Source of the DNA: Gammaproteobacteria bacterium
GTDB taxonomy: Bacteria; Pseudomonadota; Gammaproteobacteria; Eutrophobiales; Eutrophobiaceae
NCBI GenBank assembly: GCA_965116495.1
Contig: OZ220696.1
Coordinates: 2,464,001-2,528,000 of the forward strand
Direction: 5' to 3'
Length of the DNA: 64,000 bases
The position numbers and the translations under genes are program-made. Below the pieces are notes generated by a model that was not told where the DNA came from, made no database searches, and saw nothing but the letters and a program-made list of their open reading frames with translations. Of this stretch, positions 11,317 through 18,530 are shown one piece after another; position 1 is the first letter of the stretch; each line of letters opens with the position of its first letter.

Positions 11317-11643
11317 ATGTCTCAAATCCTGAAGAATCTGCCCGTGGGCAGTTATGCCGTCGTTTTCCCGTCCATCAGCACCGGCGTCGATGAAGAGGGC
11401 CATGAAAAAATGCTTGCTGAGTTGTACGGCCGTGTCCAGGAAATAGAGGGTTTCCTGGGCCTGGAATCCGCCTCAGACAGTCCATTCAAACTGGCTGTTG
11501 CCTATTTTGATTCGCTTGAGTCCATAAATGCCTGGAGACAAAACAGCGAGCACATTGCTGCCAAGAACAAGGCCCGTTCCACCTGGCTGGAAGACTGGCA
11601 GATAAGAATTTGCAGAATTGAGGAAACTTACGGCAAGTCGTAA
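11317..11643 (+). CDS. Antibiotic biosynthesis monooxygenase (ABM) domain protein
   Basis: YAVVF...GFLGLESA...YFDSLESINAWRQNSEH..A...W pattern. Confidence 0.85.
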   Translation: MSQILKNLPVGSYAVVFPSISTGVDEEGHEKMLAELYGRVQEIEGFLGLESASDSPFKLAVAYFDSLESINAWRQNSEHIAAKNKARSTWLEDWQIRICRIEETYGKS

Positions 11644-11665
11644 GAGTAATAAACCAGGAGGCAGG

Positions 11666-12850
11666 TCAGGCTAAGCCTCGTTCCTTCATCAGTCGACGGT
11701 GATGCAGCAGCGGCGGCAAGAGCAACAGGTAGGCAACAAAAAATAATACAATGCCGGCCCAAAGAATTCGGGAATAATCACCTTCCAGTAACAAGGTGGC
11801 GGCACCCGCCGGACCAATAGCCAACCCCGACATCTGGGCAGCAACAGCATAGTGCACCACCCGGCCTGTTCGCTCGAAGCTCGCCATGGAGGCCAATAAA
11901 AGAGGGTGACACATATTCCAGGCTAAGCAGTAGATACATACGGCTAGCGCATACATCAACGCAGAGAACTGACCAACTAATATGAGAAGAATCATTCCCC
12001 CTCCCGGCACGCCGATAGTCAGCAGTGAAGTTCTACCCAAACGGTGCGCCGCGACCGCTACAATTAGAGCGCCAACGATGCCGGATAATTGCGACAGGAA
12101 CAGACCATTAGCCACTTCCTGTTCATTAATTCCGGCATTGAGGCCAATAAGGAATAAATAAGCCCAGGTGCCGCCAATCGCCAGGAAATAAATGAACATG
12201 GCAAACACGGCCGCAACCCGCAAACCCATACTGATATCTACGGAGTCCGCTTCAGCAGGCTGGTGCTCTTCTCCTGATTCCGGCATGTGACGCAGGCAAA
12301 ACCAACCACCCGCAGCGAAAACCGCAAAGAAAACAATAATTCCTTCAAGACCTATGGTTGCCAACGCAGCAGGCATCACCCACAGGCTGAATGCGGAGTA
12401 AATCAGAACACCAATGATCAAATATCCAAGATTTCGATCCGGAAATCTGGTCAAACCCATAACAGTGAAAGTCAGCGAGATCAGCCCCCCGGATCCCAGG
12501 CCCACGAAGAAACGTGACAGGCCGAATGTTGTCAAATCATTGGCAGTCAGAGAGGCCAGGTTGCCTCCTACAAACAGTATTAATGAAACGTTCAGAAACT
12601 TTACCCAGTTAAACCGGGGAGCCCAAAAAGCCAGGAAGACCGAGGTTGCTGCAATACCCCAGACTTCCGTTGAAGCAATAATGCCCGCCTGTTGTTCACT
12701 GAAGCCGAGAGATTCCACCATGCCCTGAACAAAACCGGGCTGCACGATAAACACTGCTGCACCGATAACCGCGAGATAAATGGTAGAGAGAATGGAACGG
12801 GTACTGTTGACATCCACTGCAAGGTGGGAATTATGGAAGACTGCGTTCAT
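11666..12850 (-). CDS. MFS transporter
   Basis: 394 aa with about 12 hydrophobic segments; SRFFVGLGSG motif. Confidence 0.85.
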   Translation of the reverse strand: MNAVFHNSHLAVDVNSTRSILSTIYLAVIGAAVFIVQPGFVQGMVESLGFSEQQAGIIASTEVWGIAATSVFLAFWAPRFNWVKFLNVSLILFVGGNLASLTANDLTTFGLSRFFVGLGSGGLISLTFTVMGLTRFPDRNLGYLIIGVLIYSAFSLWVMPAALATIGLEGIIVFFAVFAAGGWFCLRHMPESGEEHQPAEADSVDISMGLRVAAVFAMFIYFLAIGGTWAYLFLIGLNAGINEQEVANGLFLSQLSGIVGALIVAVAAHRLGRTSLLTIGVPGGGMILLILVGQFSALMYALAVCIYCLAWNMCHPLLLASMASFERTGRVVHYAVAAQMSGLAIGPAGAATLLLEGDYSRILWAGIVLFFVAYLLLLPPLLHHRRLMKERGLA

Positions 12851-13538
12851 TATAATGCTTGATGCCCACCCCTGGTTTTGCTGTTTTCAGAACGGCGCTA
12901 TTTTCAACGACTACCTGACCATTCACCAGAACGTACGGAATACCGGTGGAGGGCCGGGCCGGCGTTTCAAGTGTCGCATTGTCGCGCACCGGTTCAGGGT
13001 CAAAGATGGTGATGTCGGCATCCATACCCTGTTGTATGCGGCCCTTGTAGCGCATCTGGGGAACGCCGTTTTCCTCCAGAAACCGGGCCTGGTAGAGGCT
13101 TAACTTTGCCAGCAGTTCCGGCCAGCTCATCAGGTTTTCTTCGCGGTTAAGTCTCAGTACCCTTGCATGCGCGCCGGTCGTACGCGGGTGGGCGCCATTT
13201 TCCAGGTCCAGCGCGGTGGTCACGCCATCCCTGGCCAGCATGCGCTGGTTGAGCGGGAGGTCGGGGGCATGCACATGTGTATCGATAAATCCGGGGGCCA
13301 CGATCTTCCCCCGGGCATTTATAGTGCGTTGCGCTGTTATCTTTTCACCGGTGATGGTTGCGATTTTGCCGTTCCGGATGCCGATGTTGCGCTGCGCATC
13401 CAGTCTGGTTTCCGGATCGATAACCCGGCCGTTATTGATGGCAATCTCATAGACCACGGGGGATGAAGCCTGGTTCTGCGCGGCAAAGGCGATTAAAGGA
13501 ATGCAAAGAGCCAGAGCTGCTGACTTTGTCAAGACCAT
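12831..13538 (-). pseudogene. Internally deleted secreted amidohydrolase (D-aminoacylase/D-glutamate deacylase-like)
   Basis: Signal peptide and N-terminal part (GRVIDPET, VAPGFIDTHVH, DGVTTALDLE) join directly to the C-terminal part (HPRTTG, KGRIQQGMDADITIFDP, VLVNG). About 235 aa, roughly half the usual length. Confidence 0.75.
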
Positions 13539-13567
13539 TTTACTGCCGCAGAAAGAGGACGATTTCG

Positions 13568-14263
13568 TCAGGCGGCCGCCCTGAGCTCGCATCGGATCGC
13601 TTCTTCGATCTCTGCTTTTTCGCGATCATAGTCCTTTGCCAATTCAGCGACCGTCTCACCGGCTTTGTATCTTTCAGCAATAACTTCGGTGGCAAGTCCC
13701 GTTCCGGTAATAACCGGCCGTCCTGCAGATAAGGTCGGGTCAATGACTACCATGGCCGGAGCCTCATTAATATTGCTGCGTGTGAAAGGATAGAGTTTTA
13801 TGGGAATTCCTTGGCTATCTCGTTCGATACGACGTAGAGCGGCCTCGATTATGTCTCGCATTGCCAATTGCCCTGCACTGCTGATATTAACCAACTTTCC
13901 GTATTGTTCAATGAACAGGTCAAGCCCATCTGTTTGAAGCTGCTTACTAATCAGTGGATACAATTTATCGAATATATCCCGCGTGTTTTCTCGAAGATAG
14001 TCAATGGCGCGCCGAACTTTGGGCATCGGTACCGCGTGTTTACGACGGATGGCTGCGAGCACATGAAGTTCGACGAGATTGTGAAACGAATATGCTAAAG
14101 GATTAGTATCCGCCACCTTTATCAGGGCCGGGGAAAAATCTTTGCCGGCAGCCCAATATCGGACCGTCGACCTGGGTAGATTCAGGTAGTGCGCGACCTC
14201 GGCAGCGGAGTACGCCGGAAGTTCACGAAGATTGGATCGTGTGTTGTTTGCTTGCTTCACCAT
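13568..14263 (-). CDS. HTH + DUF433 protein (VapB45-like antitoxin)
   Basis: N-terminal YSAAEVAHYLNLPRSTVRYW; C-terminal VIDPTLSAGRPVITGTG...IAERYKAGETVAELAKDY. Confidence 0.88.
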   Translation of the reverse strand: MVKQANNTRSNLRELPAYSAAEVAHYLNLPRSTVRYWAAGKDFSPALIKVADTNPLAYSFHNLVELHVLAAIRRKHAVPMPKVRRAIDYLRENTRDIFDKLYPLISKQLQTDGLDLFIEQYGKLVNISSAGQLAMRDIIEAALRRIERDSQGIPIKLYPFTRSNINEAPAMVVIDPTLSAGRPVITGTGLATEVIAERYKAGETVAELAKDYDREKAEIEEAIRCELRAAA

Positions 14264-14366
14264 GAGGTTCTCTCGCTGGCAAAGTTTAGCATGAATTATA
14301 AGGTTACCGTTTTGAAACTATGTTGTTTTTCCAATGAATGTCGTGGACGACGTCAAGATTATTCTG

Positions 14367-14412
14367 ATGTTCCTGGAGGGGGAATAGAAGCGGTTTTGTA
14401 ACTGCTTGTTAT
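14367..14412 (-). other. att-like site, left: IHF-like box plus tRNA-3'-like core
   Basis: Minus strand reads ATAACAAGCAGTTA-N8-CTTCTATTCCCCCTCCAGGAACAT; an inverted counterpart lies at 17188-17234. Confidence 0.55.
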
Positions 14413-14563
14413 TGCAGAACAATGTTTTCTTTTATCTAGGTTGCCCAACGATTTCCACAACATTGATGAGTTTTATTAGGTCCTACAAGGCATGTTTCAA
14501 ACTAACGAGGTTCCAGAATCCCCGCGACAAATATGTACAAAGAGCAAGGTTACACTTCTTAAT

Positions 14564-15682
14564 TTATCCAAAAAAATCCTTTAGGTCACATGCCTTACCA
14601 AATGCTTCAATTTTCCATTCGCTTTGCGAAGCCGCTGTTTTACGTAGTCGAATCTTACCGGGGGATATATTTACATTTCTTAGCGTAGCACCAGTATTAT
14701 CTATAGTTTTTTCTACGGCTCTAACTCTCAGTTTTTTGGGTCTGCGAACAGAATTATGACTAGAAGTAGTTATATATGCGTTAGAGGTTAATGATAGTAT
14801 TCGTGACGCATCTTCCCTAGTTGGTATCTCACGACCACCTAATCGCCAGGGTGTAAGCAATGCAATCGGTTCTTTTTTTAACAGTTCTCTCCATACTCGG
14901 TCCACATGTGCATTCTTGGAGCCATGATGTGGAATCTTGAATACAGAAGCCTCACATTTCGGTTTTTCTTCTGCATCTAGTATTTGTAACCACCCAGTTT
15001 TTTCCATATCTGAGCCGAGTAGAATAGCGGTTTTATTGACAATAAATAACAAAACAACTGCCGCTTGGTTAGGTGTTAAGGTTGGAATATGTCTTTTTGT
15101 TTCTCCTACTAGTGGAATAAGCTGGCCTACTGTTTGTAGAAACAAATCGAATACTGAATCGGAAGGAGAAAGAGACCAGATCTCGCAATCATATTTATTG
15201 AAAATTCGACGGTTAGCCAAAGCATGAATAGGTTTAGTACTCTTTTCATGAAGTAAATTAAACACCTGATATAGTTCCTGCATACCGGAGCGAGTAGTTG
15301 ACATCGAGCGGTTCTCGACTGCTCCAATCATCGCTAGAAATTCTTGCTCACACAAAGCGGCTGAACAACAGAAATTTGCTTCAGAACAAGTTTCTACAAG
15401 CTTTCCCATACCACGTATATGATCATCATGCCAGTGAGTAGCAATGATGAGACGTACATCCTTCGCGGGGTCTACACCTAAACTGCGGAGGTAGGACAAT
15501 GCAACTGGTATTTTTTTCTTGTCAAGACAAGAATCGATAATTACCCAATTGCAATTCCCGATATGTAAGATTATGCATTCTCCATAACCTGGCCCGGCCA
15601 GCGTTAATTCTATCTGATCAGGTTTGGGAGGAGTTATTTCTTCAGTCAGTCTTTGATTGACTCTACTATTCCCTGTGCCCAT
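14564..15682 (-). CDS. ComEC/Rec2-type metallo-beta-lactamase-fold hydrolase (probable nuclease)
   Basis: GYGECII, IIDSC, ATHWHDDHIRG (HxHxDH), LLGSDME and KIPHHGS; AT-rich. Confidence 0.88.
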   Translation of the reverse strand: MGTGNSRVNQRLTEEITPPKPDQIELTLAGPGYGECIILHIGNCNWVIIDSCLDKKKIPVALSYLRSLGVDPAKDVRLIIATHWHDDHIRGMGKLVETCSEANFCCSAALCEQEFLAMIGAVENRSMSTTRSGMQELYQVFNLLHEKSTKPIHALANRRIFNKYDCEIWSLSPSDSVFDLFLQTVGQLIPLVGETKRHIPTLTPNQAAVVLLFIVNKTAILLGSDMEKTGWLQILDAEEKPKCEASVFKIPHHGSKNAHVDRVWRELLKKEPIALLTPWRLGGREIPTREDASRILSLTSNAYITTSSHNSVRRPKKLRVRAVEKTIDNTGATLRNVNISPGKIRLRKTAASQSEWKIEAFGKACDLKDFFG

Positions 15683-16242
15683 TCTTTTCCTTCAGATATA
15701 TCCCAAGTGCTCATCAAAGGTAGATCGCGAAAGACTATTTGTGATACTCGTCGTTTATTGCCACTTGCTAAGTTCTCATAACCGATTACCCAACGAAAAA
15801 TACTTCCCGGGCAAATACGTTTGTGATCGTTTTCAGCTATTTCTTCCAAAGGAATTGTAGCTTCCTCATCTTCTTGAGTAGCTCCAGCAGTGAGATCCAC
15901 TAACCTAGCGGTAAATTCATCCCCGGTTATTTCCAGGACATAACCTTCCCATTCTTGAAGTGCATGAAATGAGTTAGATGGCTCACTCCGCAAACCTCTC
16001 GCCTTGGCAGGGAAATTAATAACAGGATTTTCTTCATAAATGGGCCACCTAGAATTCAGACCACTGTCAAAAGATTTATACATACTGTCAGTATCACGTA
16101 CTATCGGGCGCCTATGTTCCAGCACACTACCAATTCCTTCTAGATGTTTCTTATTTAATGACATGTAGGAGTAATCGTAGATGCTAGACGAATCTTGGAA
16201 TTCATTGCTAGAAAGGTCAGGCACAGTTAGGAAAAAGTACAT
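15646..16242 (-). CDS. Hypothetical protein (low-complexity N half, beta-rich C domain)
   Basis: GGAG RBS overlaps the upstream stop; LQEWEGYVLEITGDEFTARLVDL...GSIFRWVIGY; overlaps the MBL gene by 37 bp. Confidence 0.75.
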   Translation of the reverse strand: MYFFLTVPDLSSNEFQDSSSIYDYSYMSLNKKHLEGIGSVLEHRRPIVRDTDSMYKSFDSGLNSRWPIYEENPVINFPAKARGLRSEPSNSFHALQEWEGYVLEITGDEFTARLVDLTAGATQEDEEATIPLEEIAENDHKRICPGSIFRWVIGYENLASGNKRRVSQIVFRDLPLMSTWDISEGKEWAQGIVESIKD

Positions 16243-16250
16243 ATCTACTC

Positions 16251-16940
16251 CTATGTCAAAGACATTACGTGATCAATAATTTTATCTGATCGCTTTAAAG
16301 ATTCATCAAAATTCAACTCTAGCAATTTTATAATTTCGCTGGAAATTGCCTGACTATCCTGGTTCTCAAATTCGTAATGGTCATTAACTTTAATTGCTAC
16401 CCCTACACGTTCTTCTTCAATTTCACTCGATGGTCCTACAGTTACATTTATTTTCCCACCGCGTGGCCTGCCCTCTGGGTCTACCTGTGTCATAGTAAGA
16501 GAAGTCATTCCGCTAGGCGCGTCACCGAGTTCAATTTCTTTTCCCCAATCTCCCCATGGTTCAATAGGAGACAATAGTCTACCGAGTTGCATTCGTTTAT
16601 CAAAGTTCCACAAACAATAATGTACATCATAGTTTATCCCTATAGCTCTGAGTGGTGTATGGGGCAGCTTTTCTCGAAAAATACGTACAGTTAAATCACA
16701 CAAACGGACATAGGGAGATTGAGTCGTACCCAGTATAAATCTATCAGGATGAACCTCTAGATTAATCCAGTCTGCATTGAAAGATGTGAGCTGTCCATGG
16801 GCAATTTCCAATCTTGCGTTTTTCGCGATACTTTCAGGAATAAGTTGATTCCAGCCAAACCACGACGGTGTGAAGATAGAAGGGTTAAAACTACCCAGCA
16901 TAACAAGCGTCACAGAGGAATATTGGGGGTCAACCCTCAT
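16251..16940 (-). CDS. Hypothetical protein, TIGR04255-like
   Basis: GSFNPSIFTPSWF, HTPLRAIGIN and C-terminal NDHYE motifs. The family assignment is from recall, not a search. Confidence 0.6.
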   Translation of the reverse strand: MRVDPQYSSVTLVMLGSFNPSIFTPSWFGWNQLIPESIAKNARLEIAHGQLTSFNADWINLEVHPDRFILGTTQSPYVRLCDLTVRIFREKLPHTPLRAIGINYDVHYCLWNFDKRMQLGRLLSPIEPWGDWGKEIELGDAPSGMTSLTMTQVDPEGRPRGGKINVTVGPSSEIEEERVGVAIKVNDHYEFENQDSQAISSEIIKLLELNFDESLKRSDKIIDHVMSLT

Positions 16941-17187
16941 TTTGCGAATATTTCTTCTTAGAACACTATTTGCGGAGCATACATATCAATAAACTAAAAC
17001 AAGATGATACCACACACTATTGCGGAACATTTGAGAGTCATCTACCAAGGATGCGATATTAGCACCCATATTTCTCTTCTTGCAAACCCCAATCAACCAC
17101 ATAGTTATGTTTATAAGGTGACTTATTCATCCATATACTATTGAAATAATGTTGGGAAGATTATATCTTAATGTTAAGAACTGAATG

Positions 17188-17234
17188 ATATCAATAAGTT
17201 ATTTGGTATCTTCTATTCCCTCTCCCAGCACCAT
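17188..17234 (+). other. att-like site, right: IHF consensus plus tRNA 3'-end fragment
   Basis: TATCAATAAGTTA matches WATCAANNNNTTR exactly and is followed by TTCTATTCCCTCTCCCAGCACCA (T-arm/acceptor-like, CCA end, tRNA-Leu-like). It marks the AT-rich to GC-rich transition. Confidence 0.65.
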
Positions 17235-17303
17235 ATCCCAACTGTTCTACCTTGGCATCCTCATGAATCACCCTTCACCGGACTCTACTTTAATTGACAG
17301 AGT

Positions 17304-17345
17304 CGCCACGCTTTTCAACTAGGCGGAGTCCTGGTGGCTTTTTTA
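17304..17345 (+). terminator. Possible intrinsic terminator
   Basis: GCCAC...GTGGC followed by a T-run; long, imperfect stem. Confidence 0.3.
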
Positions 17346-17357
17346 CTGGATTCCTGG

Positions 17358-18443
17358 CTACCTTACCGGCAAGGTCAGCGCCGGCACCTGGGGGTTGGTC
17401 TGACCGGCCTGCAGGTCAAACAGTTGACGTAACAGCATGAATGTGGATTTGGATTCCAGGTCGGTATCTTCGATATAAAACCAGTTCCCCCGGTAGTGGG
17501 TGGCTATGTAGGCGTTTTCCGGCCGTTCGTCGCTGGTGTGTATCTTGAACAAGCGTCCTGCGGGGGTTTCATTCCAGTCGAATCTTCCACCATCTTCAGT
17601 CCTGGTGACCGTCACGAGTTCGTGGTGGTGACTGGACGGCGCCTCGACGTTGTGTGACAGATAATACAGCAGGCCCGAGATGGATCGGGGACGCACGGTC
17701 CACTGGGTATTGTCCATATTCAGAAAATCCGTATTCAGGGTGAATTCATCCTTGCCGCGGTCGAGTTCCAGCAATCTGTAGACCTGATCAATCTGATGTT
17801 TGTAGACATTATTATCTCTGACAAGCTTGATAACGATACTTCCCTCTTCGTTTGTGCCGATTTCAATGAGCTGGTTTTTCTGTAACGCGTGCAGTGCGTC
17901 CATCAGGTCACCGAATTCTTCATGGTCCGGCTCCTGTGCAGGTGTCGGTCCTGACGCATTGGGCGCGTTGTAAAGATTATTCATCCTTTCAAAACACAAT
18001 CCGAACACCCGGCTGATATTCCAGCCCGATTGCGTCAGTACCAGGATGGCCTCCAGTTGCAGGGGGCTGAGGATACTCTTGAGCAGGTCTTCGCCCCGCA
18101 GCGGCGTGTAACTGATGGTCGGTTTGTCGGTATAGGCAACCCCCACGCCGGGGCTCAGGGTATCGCCGCTGCCGAGGTTTACATCAGAGTTCAGCCCTGC
18201 GTTTGCGCCCAGGGACAGACTGGCCGTTACGCTGCCTATTTCCAGGAAAAAAGTCACATCACGGTAGCGCATGCGCACCAGGTTCTGCAGCATCTGCTCG
18301 TTGATCGAGGCGATGATGGCCTCGTTATAGGCGGGGTGGGTACGTGCGAGAGCCTGCGGGCCGAATGCCGACTGGCAGCCGGACAGCATCGCAACCAATG
18401 TCAGTAAAAGGAAAGTGTATGTGATTTGATAGCGCATAAACAT
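17358..18443 (-). CDS. Putative lipoprotein of unknown function
   Basis: Hydrophobic signal plus lipobox LSGC; start reassigned to ATG 18443 or 18437. Confidence 0.75.
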   Translation of the reverse strand: MFMRYQITYTFLLLTLVAMLSGCQSAFGPQALARTHPAYNEAIIASINEQMLQNLVRMRYRDVTFFLEIGSVTASLSLGANAGLNSDVNLGSGDTLSPGVGVAYTDKPTISYTPLRGEDLLKSILSPLQLEAILVLTQSGWNISRVFGLCFERMNNLYNAPNASGPTPAQEPDHEEFGDLMDALHALQKNQLIEIGTNEEGSIVIKLVRDNNVYKHQIDQVYRLLELDRGKDEFTLNTDFLNMDNTQWTVRPRSISGLLYYLSHNVEAPSSHHHELVTVTRTEDGGRFDWNETPAGRLFKIHTSDERPENAYIATHYRGNWFYIEDTDLESKSTFMLLRQLFDLQAGQTNPQVPALTLPVR

Positions 18444-18530
18444 AAGAGCGGGCATTTTACCGGATAGTGATTGAGACGTGAAGGTGATCCTGGTTCCCAG
18501 TTGCCGACAAGACAAGGTATAATCAATTCA

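Follow-up and report, generated by a model that had tools for sequence, protein, structure and literature searches.

The Locus and Its Two Flanking Sites

The stretch of DNA analyzed here (the window) comprises 64,000 nucleotides (nt), positions 2,464,001 to 2,528,000 of contig OZ220696.1 (assembly GCA_965116495.1), from the complete 4.34-Mb genome of a gammaproteobacterium of the family Eutrophobiaceae, referred to below as G000. GC content, ~0.55 for the genome, lies at 0.33–0.47 across 14401–17200, a block made up of three minus-strand genes between two outward-facing sites that resemble attR, the distal attachment ends of integrative islands (Table 1). An earlier note on this DNA had read the sites as tRNA mimics bounding either a non-autonomous cassette moved or inverted in trans, or two relic island ends lying back to back. 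The latter is the better fit of the two: the motifs are probably two relic attR ends, the stranded piece of a composite island derived from two oppositely oriented elements.

Both motifs lie where the note had placed them. The right 14-mer (17188–17201, plus strand) is followed by an 8-nt gap and a core beginning at 17210, the left 14-mer (14412–14399, minus strand) has the same gap, the two agree at 11/14 positions, and after the gap both sites run on as CTTCTATTCCC. The description given of them was real but incomplete, as each site spans ~100 bp and includes arm repeats that had been overlooked. Reading outward, a pair of arm repeats comes first, then an IHF-type box, a gap of 9 bp, a first half-site TTC(G/T)ANTCC (TTCTATTCC in the window), an overlap of 7 bp, and the second half-site. 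The IHF consensus is WATCAANNNNTTR; the right box matches it exactly, the left box with one mismatch. G000 carries three genes of the IHF/HU family. The sites delimit the AT-rich block as far as low GC is concerned, but foreign DNA extends past both cores, from ~14314 to ~17344.

The suggestion that both ends are attR-like holds, since arm repeats, IHF box, and core are laid out as in islands of the genus. In both window sites, the arm repeats begin at a fixed distance inside the core (72–73 bp) and an IHF-type box lies between arms and core, with a 9-bp spacing that is constant in all sites. A displaced tRNA 3′ end follows the core of the right site, where 13/14 bases from position 63 match tRNA-Leu(CAA) and the overlap CTCTCCC equals positions 63–69 of that tRNA; a tRNA ending like the right core therefore does exist, 628 kb away on the opposite strand. 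The left site has no tRNA match, and its overlap CCCTCCA is absent from all tRNAs of G000. No cognate tRNA with an attL was found upstream in direct orientation, nor any attL arms nearby. The window itself is devoid of tRNA and integrase genes, as the note had it, the genome’s nine matches to PF00589 all lying outside. A non-coding RNA at the sites was rejected, an Rfam search in eight loci having returned only a tRNA.

TABLE 1. Features of the cassette and its borders, in window coordinates (C and C′, first and second half-site; aa, amino acids).
Feature	Position	Strand	Remarks
HTH-DUF433 gene (helix-turn-helix)	13568..14263	-	Separate insertion outside the cassette; marks left breakpoint near 14313
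Outer tail of left site	14314..14364	-	First 20–35 bp recur after the same core elsewhere
Left core	14365..14389	-	C 14389–14381, overlap CCCTCCA 14380–14374, C′ 14373–14365 (putative division); likely attR at a secondary site
Left IHF-type box	14399..14411	-	9 bp ahead of core; one consensus mismatch
Left arm-repeat pair	14445..14462	-	73 bp ahead of core
Cargo gene 3, 372-aa hydrolase with a metallo-beta-lactamase (MBL) fold	14564..15682	-	HxHxDH motif
Cargo gene 2, 198 aa	15646..16242	-	Without family; predicted disordered N-terminus and C-terminal beta domain, weak matches to the oligonucleotide-binding (OB) fold
Cargo gene 1, 229 aa	16251..16940	-	Nearest Atlas cluster named TIGR04255 family; no hidden Markov model match
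Right arm-repeat pair	17139..17155	+	72 bp ahead of core; first repeat degenerate
Right IHF-type box	17189..17201	+	Exact consensus; 9 bp ahead of core
Right core	17211..17235	+	C 17211–17219, overlap CTCTCCC 17220–17226, C′ 17227–17235
Outer tail of right site	17236..17344	+	Reaches native flank; lacks attL arm repeats and homologs among the loci retrieved
Putative lipoprotein gene	17358..18515	-	Native flank; adjoins atp operon in relatives without inserts

A Family of Sites in the Genus

The genome sample comprised 41 genomes, 23 of the genus (G000 and 22 congeners) and 18 outside it. The pattern WAWCAA-N4-TTR-N9-TTCKANTCC, derived from the sites of G000, has 45 exact matches in 16/23 genus genomes (six in G000 and 39 in 15/22 congeners) and none in the 18 others, while a control gave one match in all 41 genomes. 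With a weight matrix trained on 27 sites, all from genomes other than G000, the window sites score 46.3 and 47.6 bits; nine sites of G000 exceed 20 bits, against none in the reversed genome (best 16.5), so the motif stands well above background. A single-arm expression fits 71/94 distinct sites and 10% of shuffles.

In 69 of these 94 sites, the 7-mer is identical to positions 63–69 of one among nine G000 tRNAs, and the overlaps of this site type cover at least nine tRNA types plus orphan sites. Within the 69, which match at positions 63–69 by construction, mismatches to the tRNA occur in 59, 54, and 48% of sites at positions 57, 59, and 62, and in 17, 9, and 19% at positions 70–72. Sites that mimic a tRNA, with crossover in the T-loop, do not agree with these data, as positions 57, 59, and 62 diverge in about half of the sites and identity to the tRNA begins past the T-loop, at position 63. 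The TTCTATT shared by both window cores is likely the element’s own core site rather than a mimic; TTCTATTCC would be the element’s own half-site, with strand exchange at tRNA positions 63–69. In G022, one of the sites forms a nearly perfect inverted repeat about the 7-mer, a symmetry that fits the division into half-sites and overlap. An orphan site of Leu(GAG) type (G000 C1:993352), which has 14 bp of the tRNA’s own downstream flank, lies 867 kb from tRNA-Leu(GAG), at the end of a tRNA-Leu(TAA) island.

Islands and Integrases at tRNA Genes

In relatives, the arm repeats of the sites are also present a short way upstream of the integrase genes located behind tRNAs, at +135 to +160 in all nine attL (tRNA-integrase) ends examined. 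These integrases contain PF13356, a domain present in 10/23 genus genomes. The sites thus have the attR layout of islands that P4-type tyrosine integrases insert at tRNAs in this genus. The right core is of the type seen in the attR of the tRNA-Leu(CAA) islands of G001, G014, and G020. A right-type site closes such an island in G001 (3.9 kb) and likewise in G020 (1.2 kb), neither having an integrase open reading frame (ORF) in between, and in G014 the tRNA is followed by a 396-aa integrase gene, the adjacent integrase that the note had proposed to look for, and by a right-type attR 18 kb further on.

Enzymes that share 71–88% identity with the G014 integrase are encoded next to the Leu(TAA), Leu(GAG), Thr(TGT), Arg(CCT), and Phe tRNAs. 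Cross-use of sites is plausible given such identities, and integrases of this clade may act on one another’s sites. The clade as a whole has six tRNA targets, and its two Leu(TAA) enzymes fall in separate branches, which suggests that target switching could be frequent. G000 has no full-length integrase closer than 54% and no AlpA match; one of its array sites is followed by an integrase stump of 56 aa that shares 86% identity with the Leu(CAA) enzyme.

Some further recombinase loci were also observed. In G000, a possible 87-kb island behind tRNA-Thr(CGT) (C1:1217040-1304704) has two array sites and an integrase stump (1220873-1221040), and three adjacent, apparently frameshifted tyrosine recombinase matches behind tRNA-Leu(TAA) (C1:1008451-1011900) resemble a recombinase-in-trio (RIT) element. 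A family of P4-type integrases of ~406 aa (loci L207, L220, and L225 in G008 and G015; G000 C1:488254-489321) adjoins with its left end not a tRNA but hairpins like repetitive extragenic palindromic (REP) sequences, GGGGTCAG...CTGACCCC, in 3/4 aligned copies. PF13356 copies are many in G015 and G022 (31 matches in the latter), and the 9-bp hairpin end has 153 exact copies in G000 against 14 in the reversed control. These dispersed enzymes were considered and dropped as partners of the sites, as their left ends adjoin the hairpins and no site scored nearby; at the cassette ends, no exact hairpin was found in 10–20 kb.

Same-Direction Arrays

Two blocks held in common by G018 and G020 (99.3–99.5% identity) are joined at a single site in G020 and separated in G018 by 2.9 kb bounded by sites; two cassettes of that insert (97–99% identical) lie 14 kb further on in G020. 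Another block, 98.9% identical between G000 and G010, begins at tRNA-Thr(CGT) in the former and at an array site in the latter. The sites evidently work in direct orientation, the order of cassettes having changed at sites within arrays. G020 has no PF13356 match, and the change was likely made by an integrase supplied from elsewhere. Mobilization in trans, which the note had suggested for the window, fits these arrays but not the window pair.

Reordered arrays and an integrase stump are what the model of accretion and cis-mobilizable elements (CIMEs) predicts. Units that lack an integrase and are bounded by direct att sites at a tRNA occur at Leu(CAA) in G001 and G020 and at Leu(GAG) in G005 and G016, and further arrays of this type at Phe in G001 and G016 and at Thr(CGT) in G015 and G019. 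The window block resembles a CIME in holding three ORFs, none of them a recombinase, and no transfer gene, but in place of attL and attR in direct orientation it has two inverted attR-type ends with unlike overlaps.

Outward-Facing Pairs and Their Breakpoints

Pairs were counted among 100 model matches (E up to ~0.008) after removal of matches limited to the box or the tRNA end. Of neighboring sites within 10 kb, 15 pairs are tandem, six outward, and one inward; an outward pair spanning 11 kb in G022 brings the outward total to seven, in six genomes. Other cassettes with different cargo, which the note had proposed to search for, thus exist in the same inverted arrangement, with other low-GC gene sets at L046:5961-11587 (G019), L247:6224-14276 (G016), and L250:2076-5510 (G015). 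Four pairs lie in or beside larger islands (G015, G010, and two in G022), that of G015 within a tRNA-Leu(TAA) island immediately behind its integrase; the other three occupy non-tRNA hotspots, in the window, after thpR in G019, and after dapD in G016. Neither dapD nor thpR is a fixed target, both being hotspots with differing inserts.

The arm pair stands at -72 to -74 in 13/14 sites of these pairs, whereas attL-type arms are found downstream of none of the 14 (one loose match at +108), against 9/9 tRNA-integrase ends, and the overlaps differ within all seven pairs. Lambda-type excision requires attL and attR in direct orientation with matching overlaps. With unlike overlaps and no attL arms, standard excision of the outward pairs, that of the window included, is thus unlikely. 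Contigs assembled from four sequencing runs of two studies, in which rare variants are dropped, covered the region in 4/4 runs and showed no joint at either window site and no inversion. Movement or inversion through this pair, one of the note’s proposals, is accordingly disfavored. A low-depth 5.2-kb minority contig from run X1, whose variants recur in X2 and X3, shares 14297–14413 with the window (eight differences, one gap), its match ending at the IHF box.

The breakpoints do not coincide with the motifs either. Sequence common with relatives stops near 14313 and returns near 17345, ~50 and ~110 bp beyond the cores. Six relatives have no more than ~270 bp between the lipoprotein gene and the region upstream of atp, and in G001 the lipoprotein gene is 91 bp from the DUF433 gene. 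A large chromosomal inversion between two tRNA islands was discarded as an origin for the window, because its outer flanks adjoin each other in relatives; such an inversion could still apply to G010.

Origin of the Left End

Overlaps of left-type sites vary (CCCTCCA, CCTTCCA, CTTTCCA, TCCTCCA, CTCTCCA, and CCCTCCG) and their tails are non-tRNA. Six left-type arms cluster with a true Leu(CAA) attR of G001 (support 99/100, in a tree of 96 columns with many forks open), and the likeness of the window’s left site to the ends of other elements breaks off at ~14464, where the cargo diverges. We infer that left-type sites are attR ends left at secondary targets. The stretch of 20–35 bp that opens the left tail is found again behind three arm types, at unrelated loci in G000 (C1:4032910), G001, G003, G016, and G022. 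No source for the tail was found in the genomes, viral contigs, plasmids, and metagenome scans searched. Among 401 class genomes, the tail pattern has one match with a single mismatch outside G000, and it is absent from viral contigs, from two metagenome scans, and from plasmids. A foreign tRNA as the source was rejected, with 0/301 class genomes matching the one pattern used. Five copies of the tail can be translated into a short peptide closed by a stop codon; the end of a host gene was rejected as the target too, as no C-terminus in G000 matches and genus matches are known site copies only.

Origin of the Window Block

The reading of the window block as two relic attR ends draws on the layout and spacing of the sites, the correspondence between the right site and tRNA-Leu(CAA) islands, and the integrase genes behind tRNAs in relatives, together with the reordering of site-bounded cassettes in same-direction arrays and the recurrence of outward pairs with unlike overlaps. 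The integrase would bind the arm repeats and the TTC(G/T)ANTCC half-site, IHF would bend the arm, and exchange would run across tRNA positions 63–69. Islands would then drop the integrase gene, retain their ends, and accumulate, as the stump behind the G000 array site illustrates. The least certain steps are the following: the left site would be the attR of a related element, inserted in reverse into a non-tRNA secondary target; both attL/integrase halves would have been lost, leaving the operon between two attR ends; and the block would have come to the atp-side hotspot without cutting at the cores, for example by recombination through flanking genes. Ends that stem from two elements of opposite orientation would allow neither excision nor inversion by the normal reaction.

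Several observations weigh against this origin. Outward pairs are not rare beside the single inward and 15 tandem ones, and those of the window, G019, and G016 have no nearby tRNA and place a site ~0–200 bp from the end of the foreign DNA. Arm and IHF spacing are intact, although decay would soon erode them, and the block yielded no attL remnant from either parent. Both flanks are hotspots in their own right, which makes the empty-site comparison coarse, and a reaction seen only in rare variants would be lost from contigs. The best evidence on this side comes from G019, where the left end of the insert falls at the boundary between overlap and C′ when compared with the empty promoter of G000 and G001; the right end lies ~190 bp outside, at a degenerate promoter duplication. 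The window and G019 moreover combine the same two overlap types around different cargo. The G019 breakpoint and this shared overlap pairing lend weight to an alternative in which the inverted pair is a working unit, its arm-bearing ends acting like those of a transposon under a P4-type integrase supplied in trans, with non-tRNA DNA as target. In its favor are the occurrence, in six genomes, of seven outward pairs whose cargo is unrelated and the single integrase clade with six tRNA targets, and Tn916-type integrases tolerate unlike overlaps. Also favorable are a czc block in G000 and G022 (cargo 98.8% identical), which shares the same arm-core end and has different sequence past the overlap, and the near-perfectly symmetric core in G022. 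However, none of the seven overlap bases of the window pair is shared in excision orientation, other pairs combine other overlap types, and the breakpoints in the window fall beyond the cores. Being common to unrelated loci, the left tail is not local target DNA, and the operon occurs without such sites in G006 and in all 80 other loci compared (the best 80 of 491; none with a site above 16 bits), so it spreads without these ends. We regard a working unit as unlikely, though more credible than the alternatives that follow.

A third account would have each end arise by an independent secondary-site insertion into one hotspot, in opposite directions, with the inner halves deleted in place and the operon belonging to one of the two elements. 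The gap between atpI and the lipoprotein gene does hold differing inserts among relatives, and the minority contig would fit another element at the same junction. But the tRNA-Leu 3′ end kept by the right end is foreign to this place, the left tail is non-native as well, and the block has no int or attL remnant; this account ranks below the working unit and seems rather improbable. Least credible of all, and very improbable in our view, is an invertible switch in which recombination between the inverted sites flips the operon. The orientation of the sites and their overlaps, alike at 5/7 positions when aligned for inversion, would suit it, but attR by attR is a non-standard reaction, the contigs of the four runs contain no strand-changing joint, and the operon’s upstream sigma-70-like matches, no more numerous than in shuffles, fall within the segment that would turn. 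A bolder synthesis would have one promiscuous P4-type integrase clade run a genome-wide cassette exchange in the genus, the 7-bp overlap rather than the enzyme choosing between nine or more tRNAs and many secondary sites as target, integrase-less cassettes being shuffled in the manner of an integron, and two inverted attR ends serving as a transposon-like carrier of new operons, in the window an unnamed nuclease system of three genes, to non-tRNA hotspots. We hold this doubtful, its probability falling between those of the working unit and the double insertion.

Relation to Known Systems

The site type and integrase-less accretion are already known. KplE1, with its integrase IntS, has arm-type and core-type sites, uses IHF, and carries the integrase promoter over attL; its core is 16 nt, and a 16-bp tRNA 3′ end is duplicated (PMC2951348). 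The genus sites resemble an attR of this P4 family in their arm and core sites, IHF box, and integrase behind a tRNA with arm repeats upstream; the counterpart of the 16-nt core is tRNA positions 63–76 plus flank. The window differs from such an attR in having two outward-facing copies, no attL, tRNA, or integrase, and one non-tRNA overlap. CIMEs have lost the integrase, kept their att sites, and accrete in tandem at a tRNA (PMC5704250). The same-direction arrays of the genus at Leu(GAG), Thr(CGT), Phe, and Arg(CCT) look much the same, whereas a CIME retains direct attL and attR and the window block is an inverted attR pair away from any tRNA.

The ssrA islands of Dehalococcoides are likewise tandem and marked by repeats of the target 3′ end, 15 of them being without an integration module (PMC3146451). 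The arrays of the genus share these traits, some lacking the module too; Dehalococcoides employs a serine recombinase with a single target, in contrast to a tyrosine integrase clade with at least nine tRNA types plus orphan sites. Integrons have IntI with attI and palindromic attC sites; the sites of the genus bear arm and IHF motifs and adjoin integrases of the PF13356 type. ICEBs1, whose tyrosine integrase targets a tRNA-Leu, also uses imperfect sites, and unlike 7-bp crossovers lower its excision or yield unstable circles (PMC3715440). Left-type sites can be read in the same way as secondary-site insertions, although integrase family and host differ, and an inverted attR pair is not described in the available part of that paper. 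Our literature search, which covered titles and abstract openings and left subscription papers mostly uncovered, found nothing on inverted attR pairs or on the three-gene operon.

Less usual in scale and clarity are near-identical arrays with changed order, integrases 71–88% alike at six tRNAs, and the recurrence of attR pairs in inverted arrangement. Should target choice depend on the overlap alone, the clade would serve as an integrase tool open to retargeting and would allow mobilization of CIMEs in trans to be put to the test; should inverted attR ends move DNA, lambda-type integrases would have a mode of action new to them.

The Cargo Operon

The three cargo genes stand together and in order in 77 of the 80 compared loci, in records from many phyla, which makes the operon a strongly conserved, unnamed candidate system. 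Several of the taxa carrying it we take to be sponge symbionts, and within the genus the hydrolase is found in 2/23 genomes. The 372-aa product is likely a nuclease: it has weak profile matches to PADLOC RTasMBL, LmuA, NCBIfam 6A-MBL, and Avs1a (E 6e-14 to 1e-3). This weak similarity to MBL-fold nuclease effectors of anti-phage systems falls well short of a known system, as the best NCBIfam score is 28.6 bits against a cut-off of 220 and the partner proteins have no PADLOC match. A defense system was not indicated by the neighborhood either, with defense genes at 6/80 flanking ORFs (16 sampled loci) against 2/19 in window controls, i.e., no enrichment. A role in nuclease-based defense or in stress is a guess about as apt to be right as wrong. 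For the 229-aa protein, a confident structural model gave a best Z of 7.8, below the bar of 8, and no clear solved match; the 198-aa protein has no fold match at E 0.001. The literature search found no papers on TIGR04255. In two gammaproteobacterial records (L088 and L089), the operon begins ~200 bp after tRNA-Arg(CCG).

Other Features of the Window

The interval from atpI to the cassette (11317–14263) contains four modules, each inserted separately, namely a 108-aa gene, a major facilitator superfamily transporter, an amidohydrolase shortened to 253 aa, and HTH-DUF433; relatives hold these modules elsewhere or in different sets. Further on, an ORF of 8,353 aa (35426–60487, plus strand), with high GC and strong A skew, probably encodes a giant repeat surface protein.

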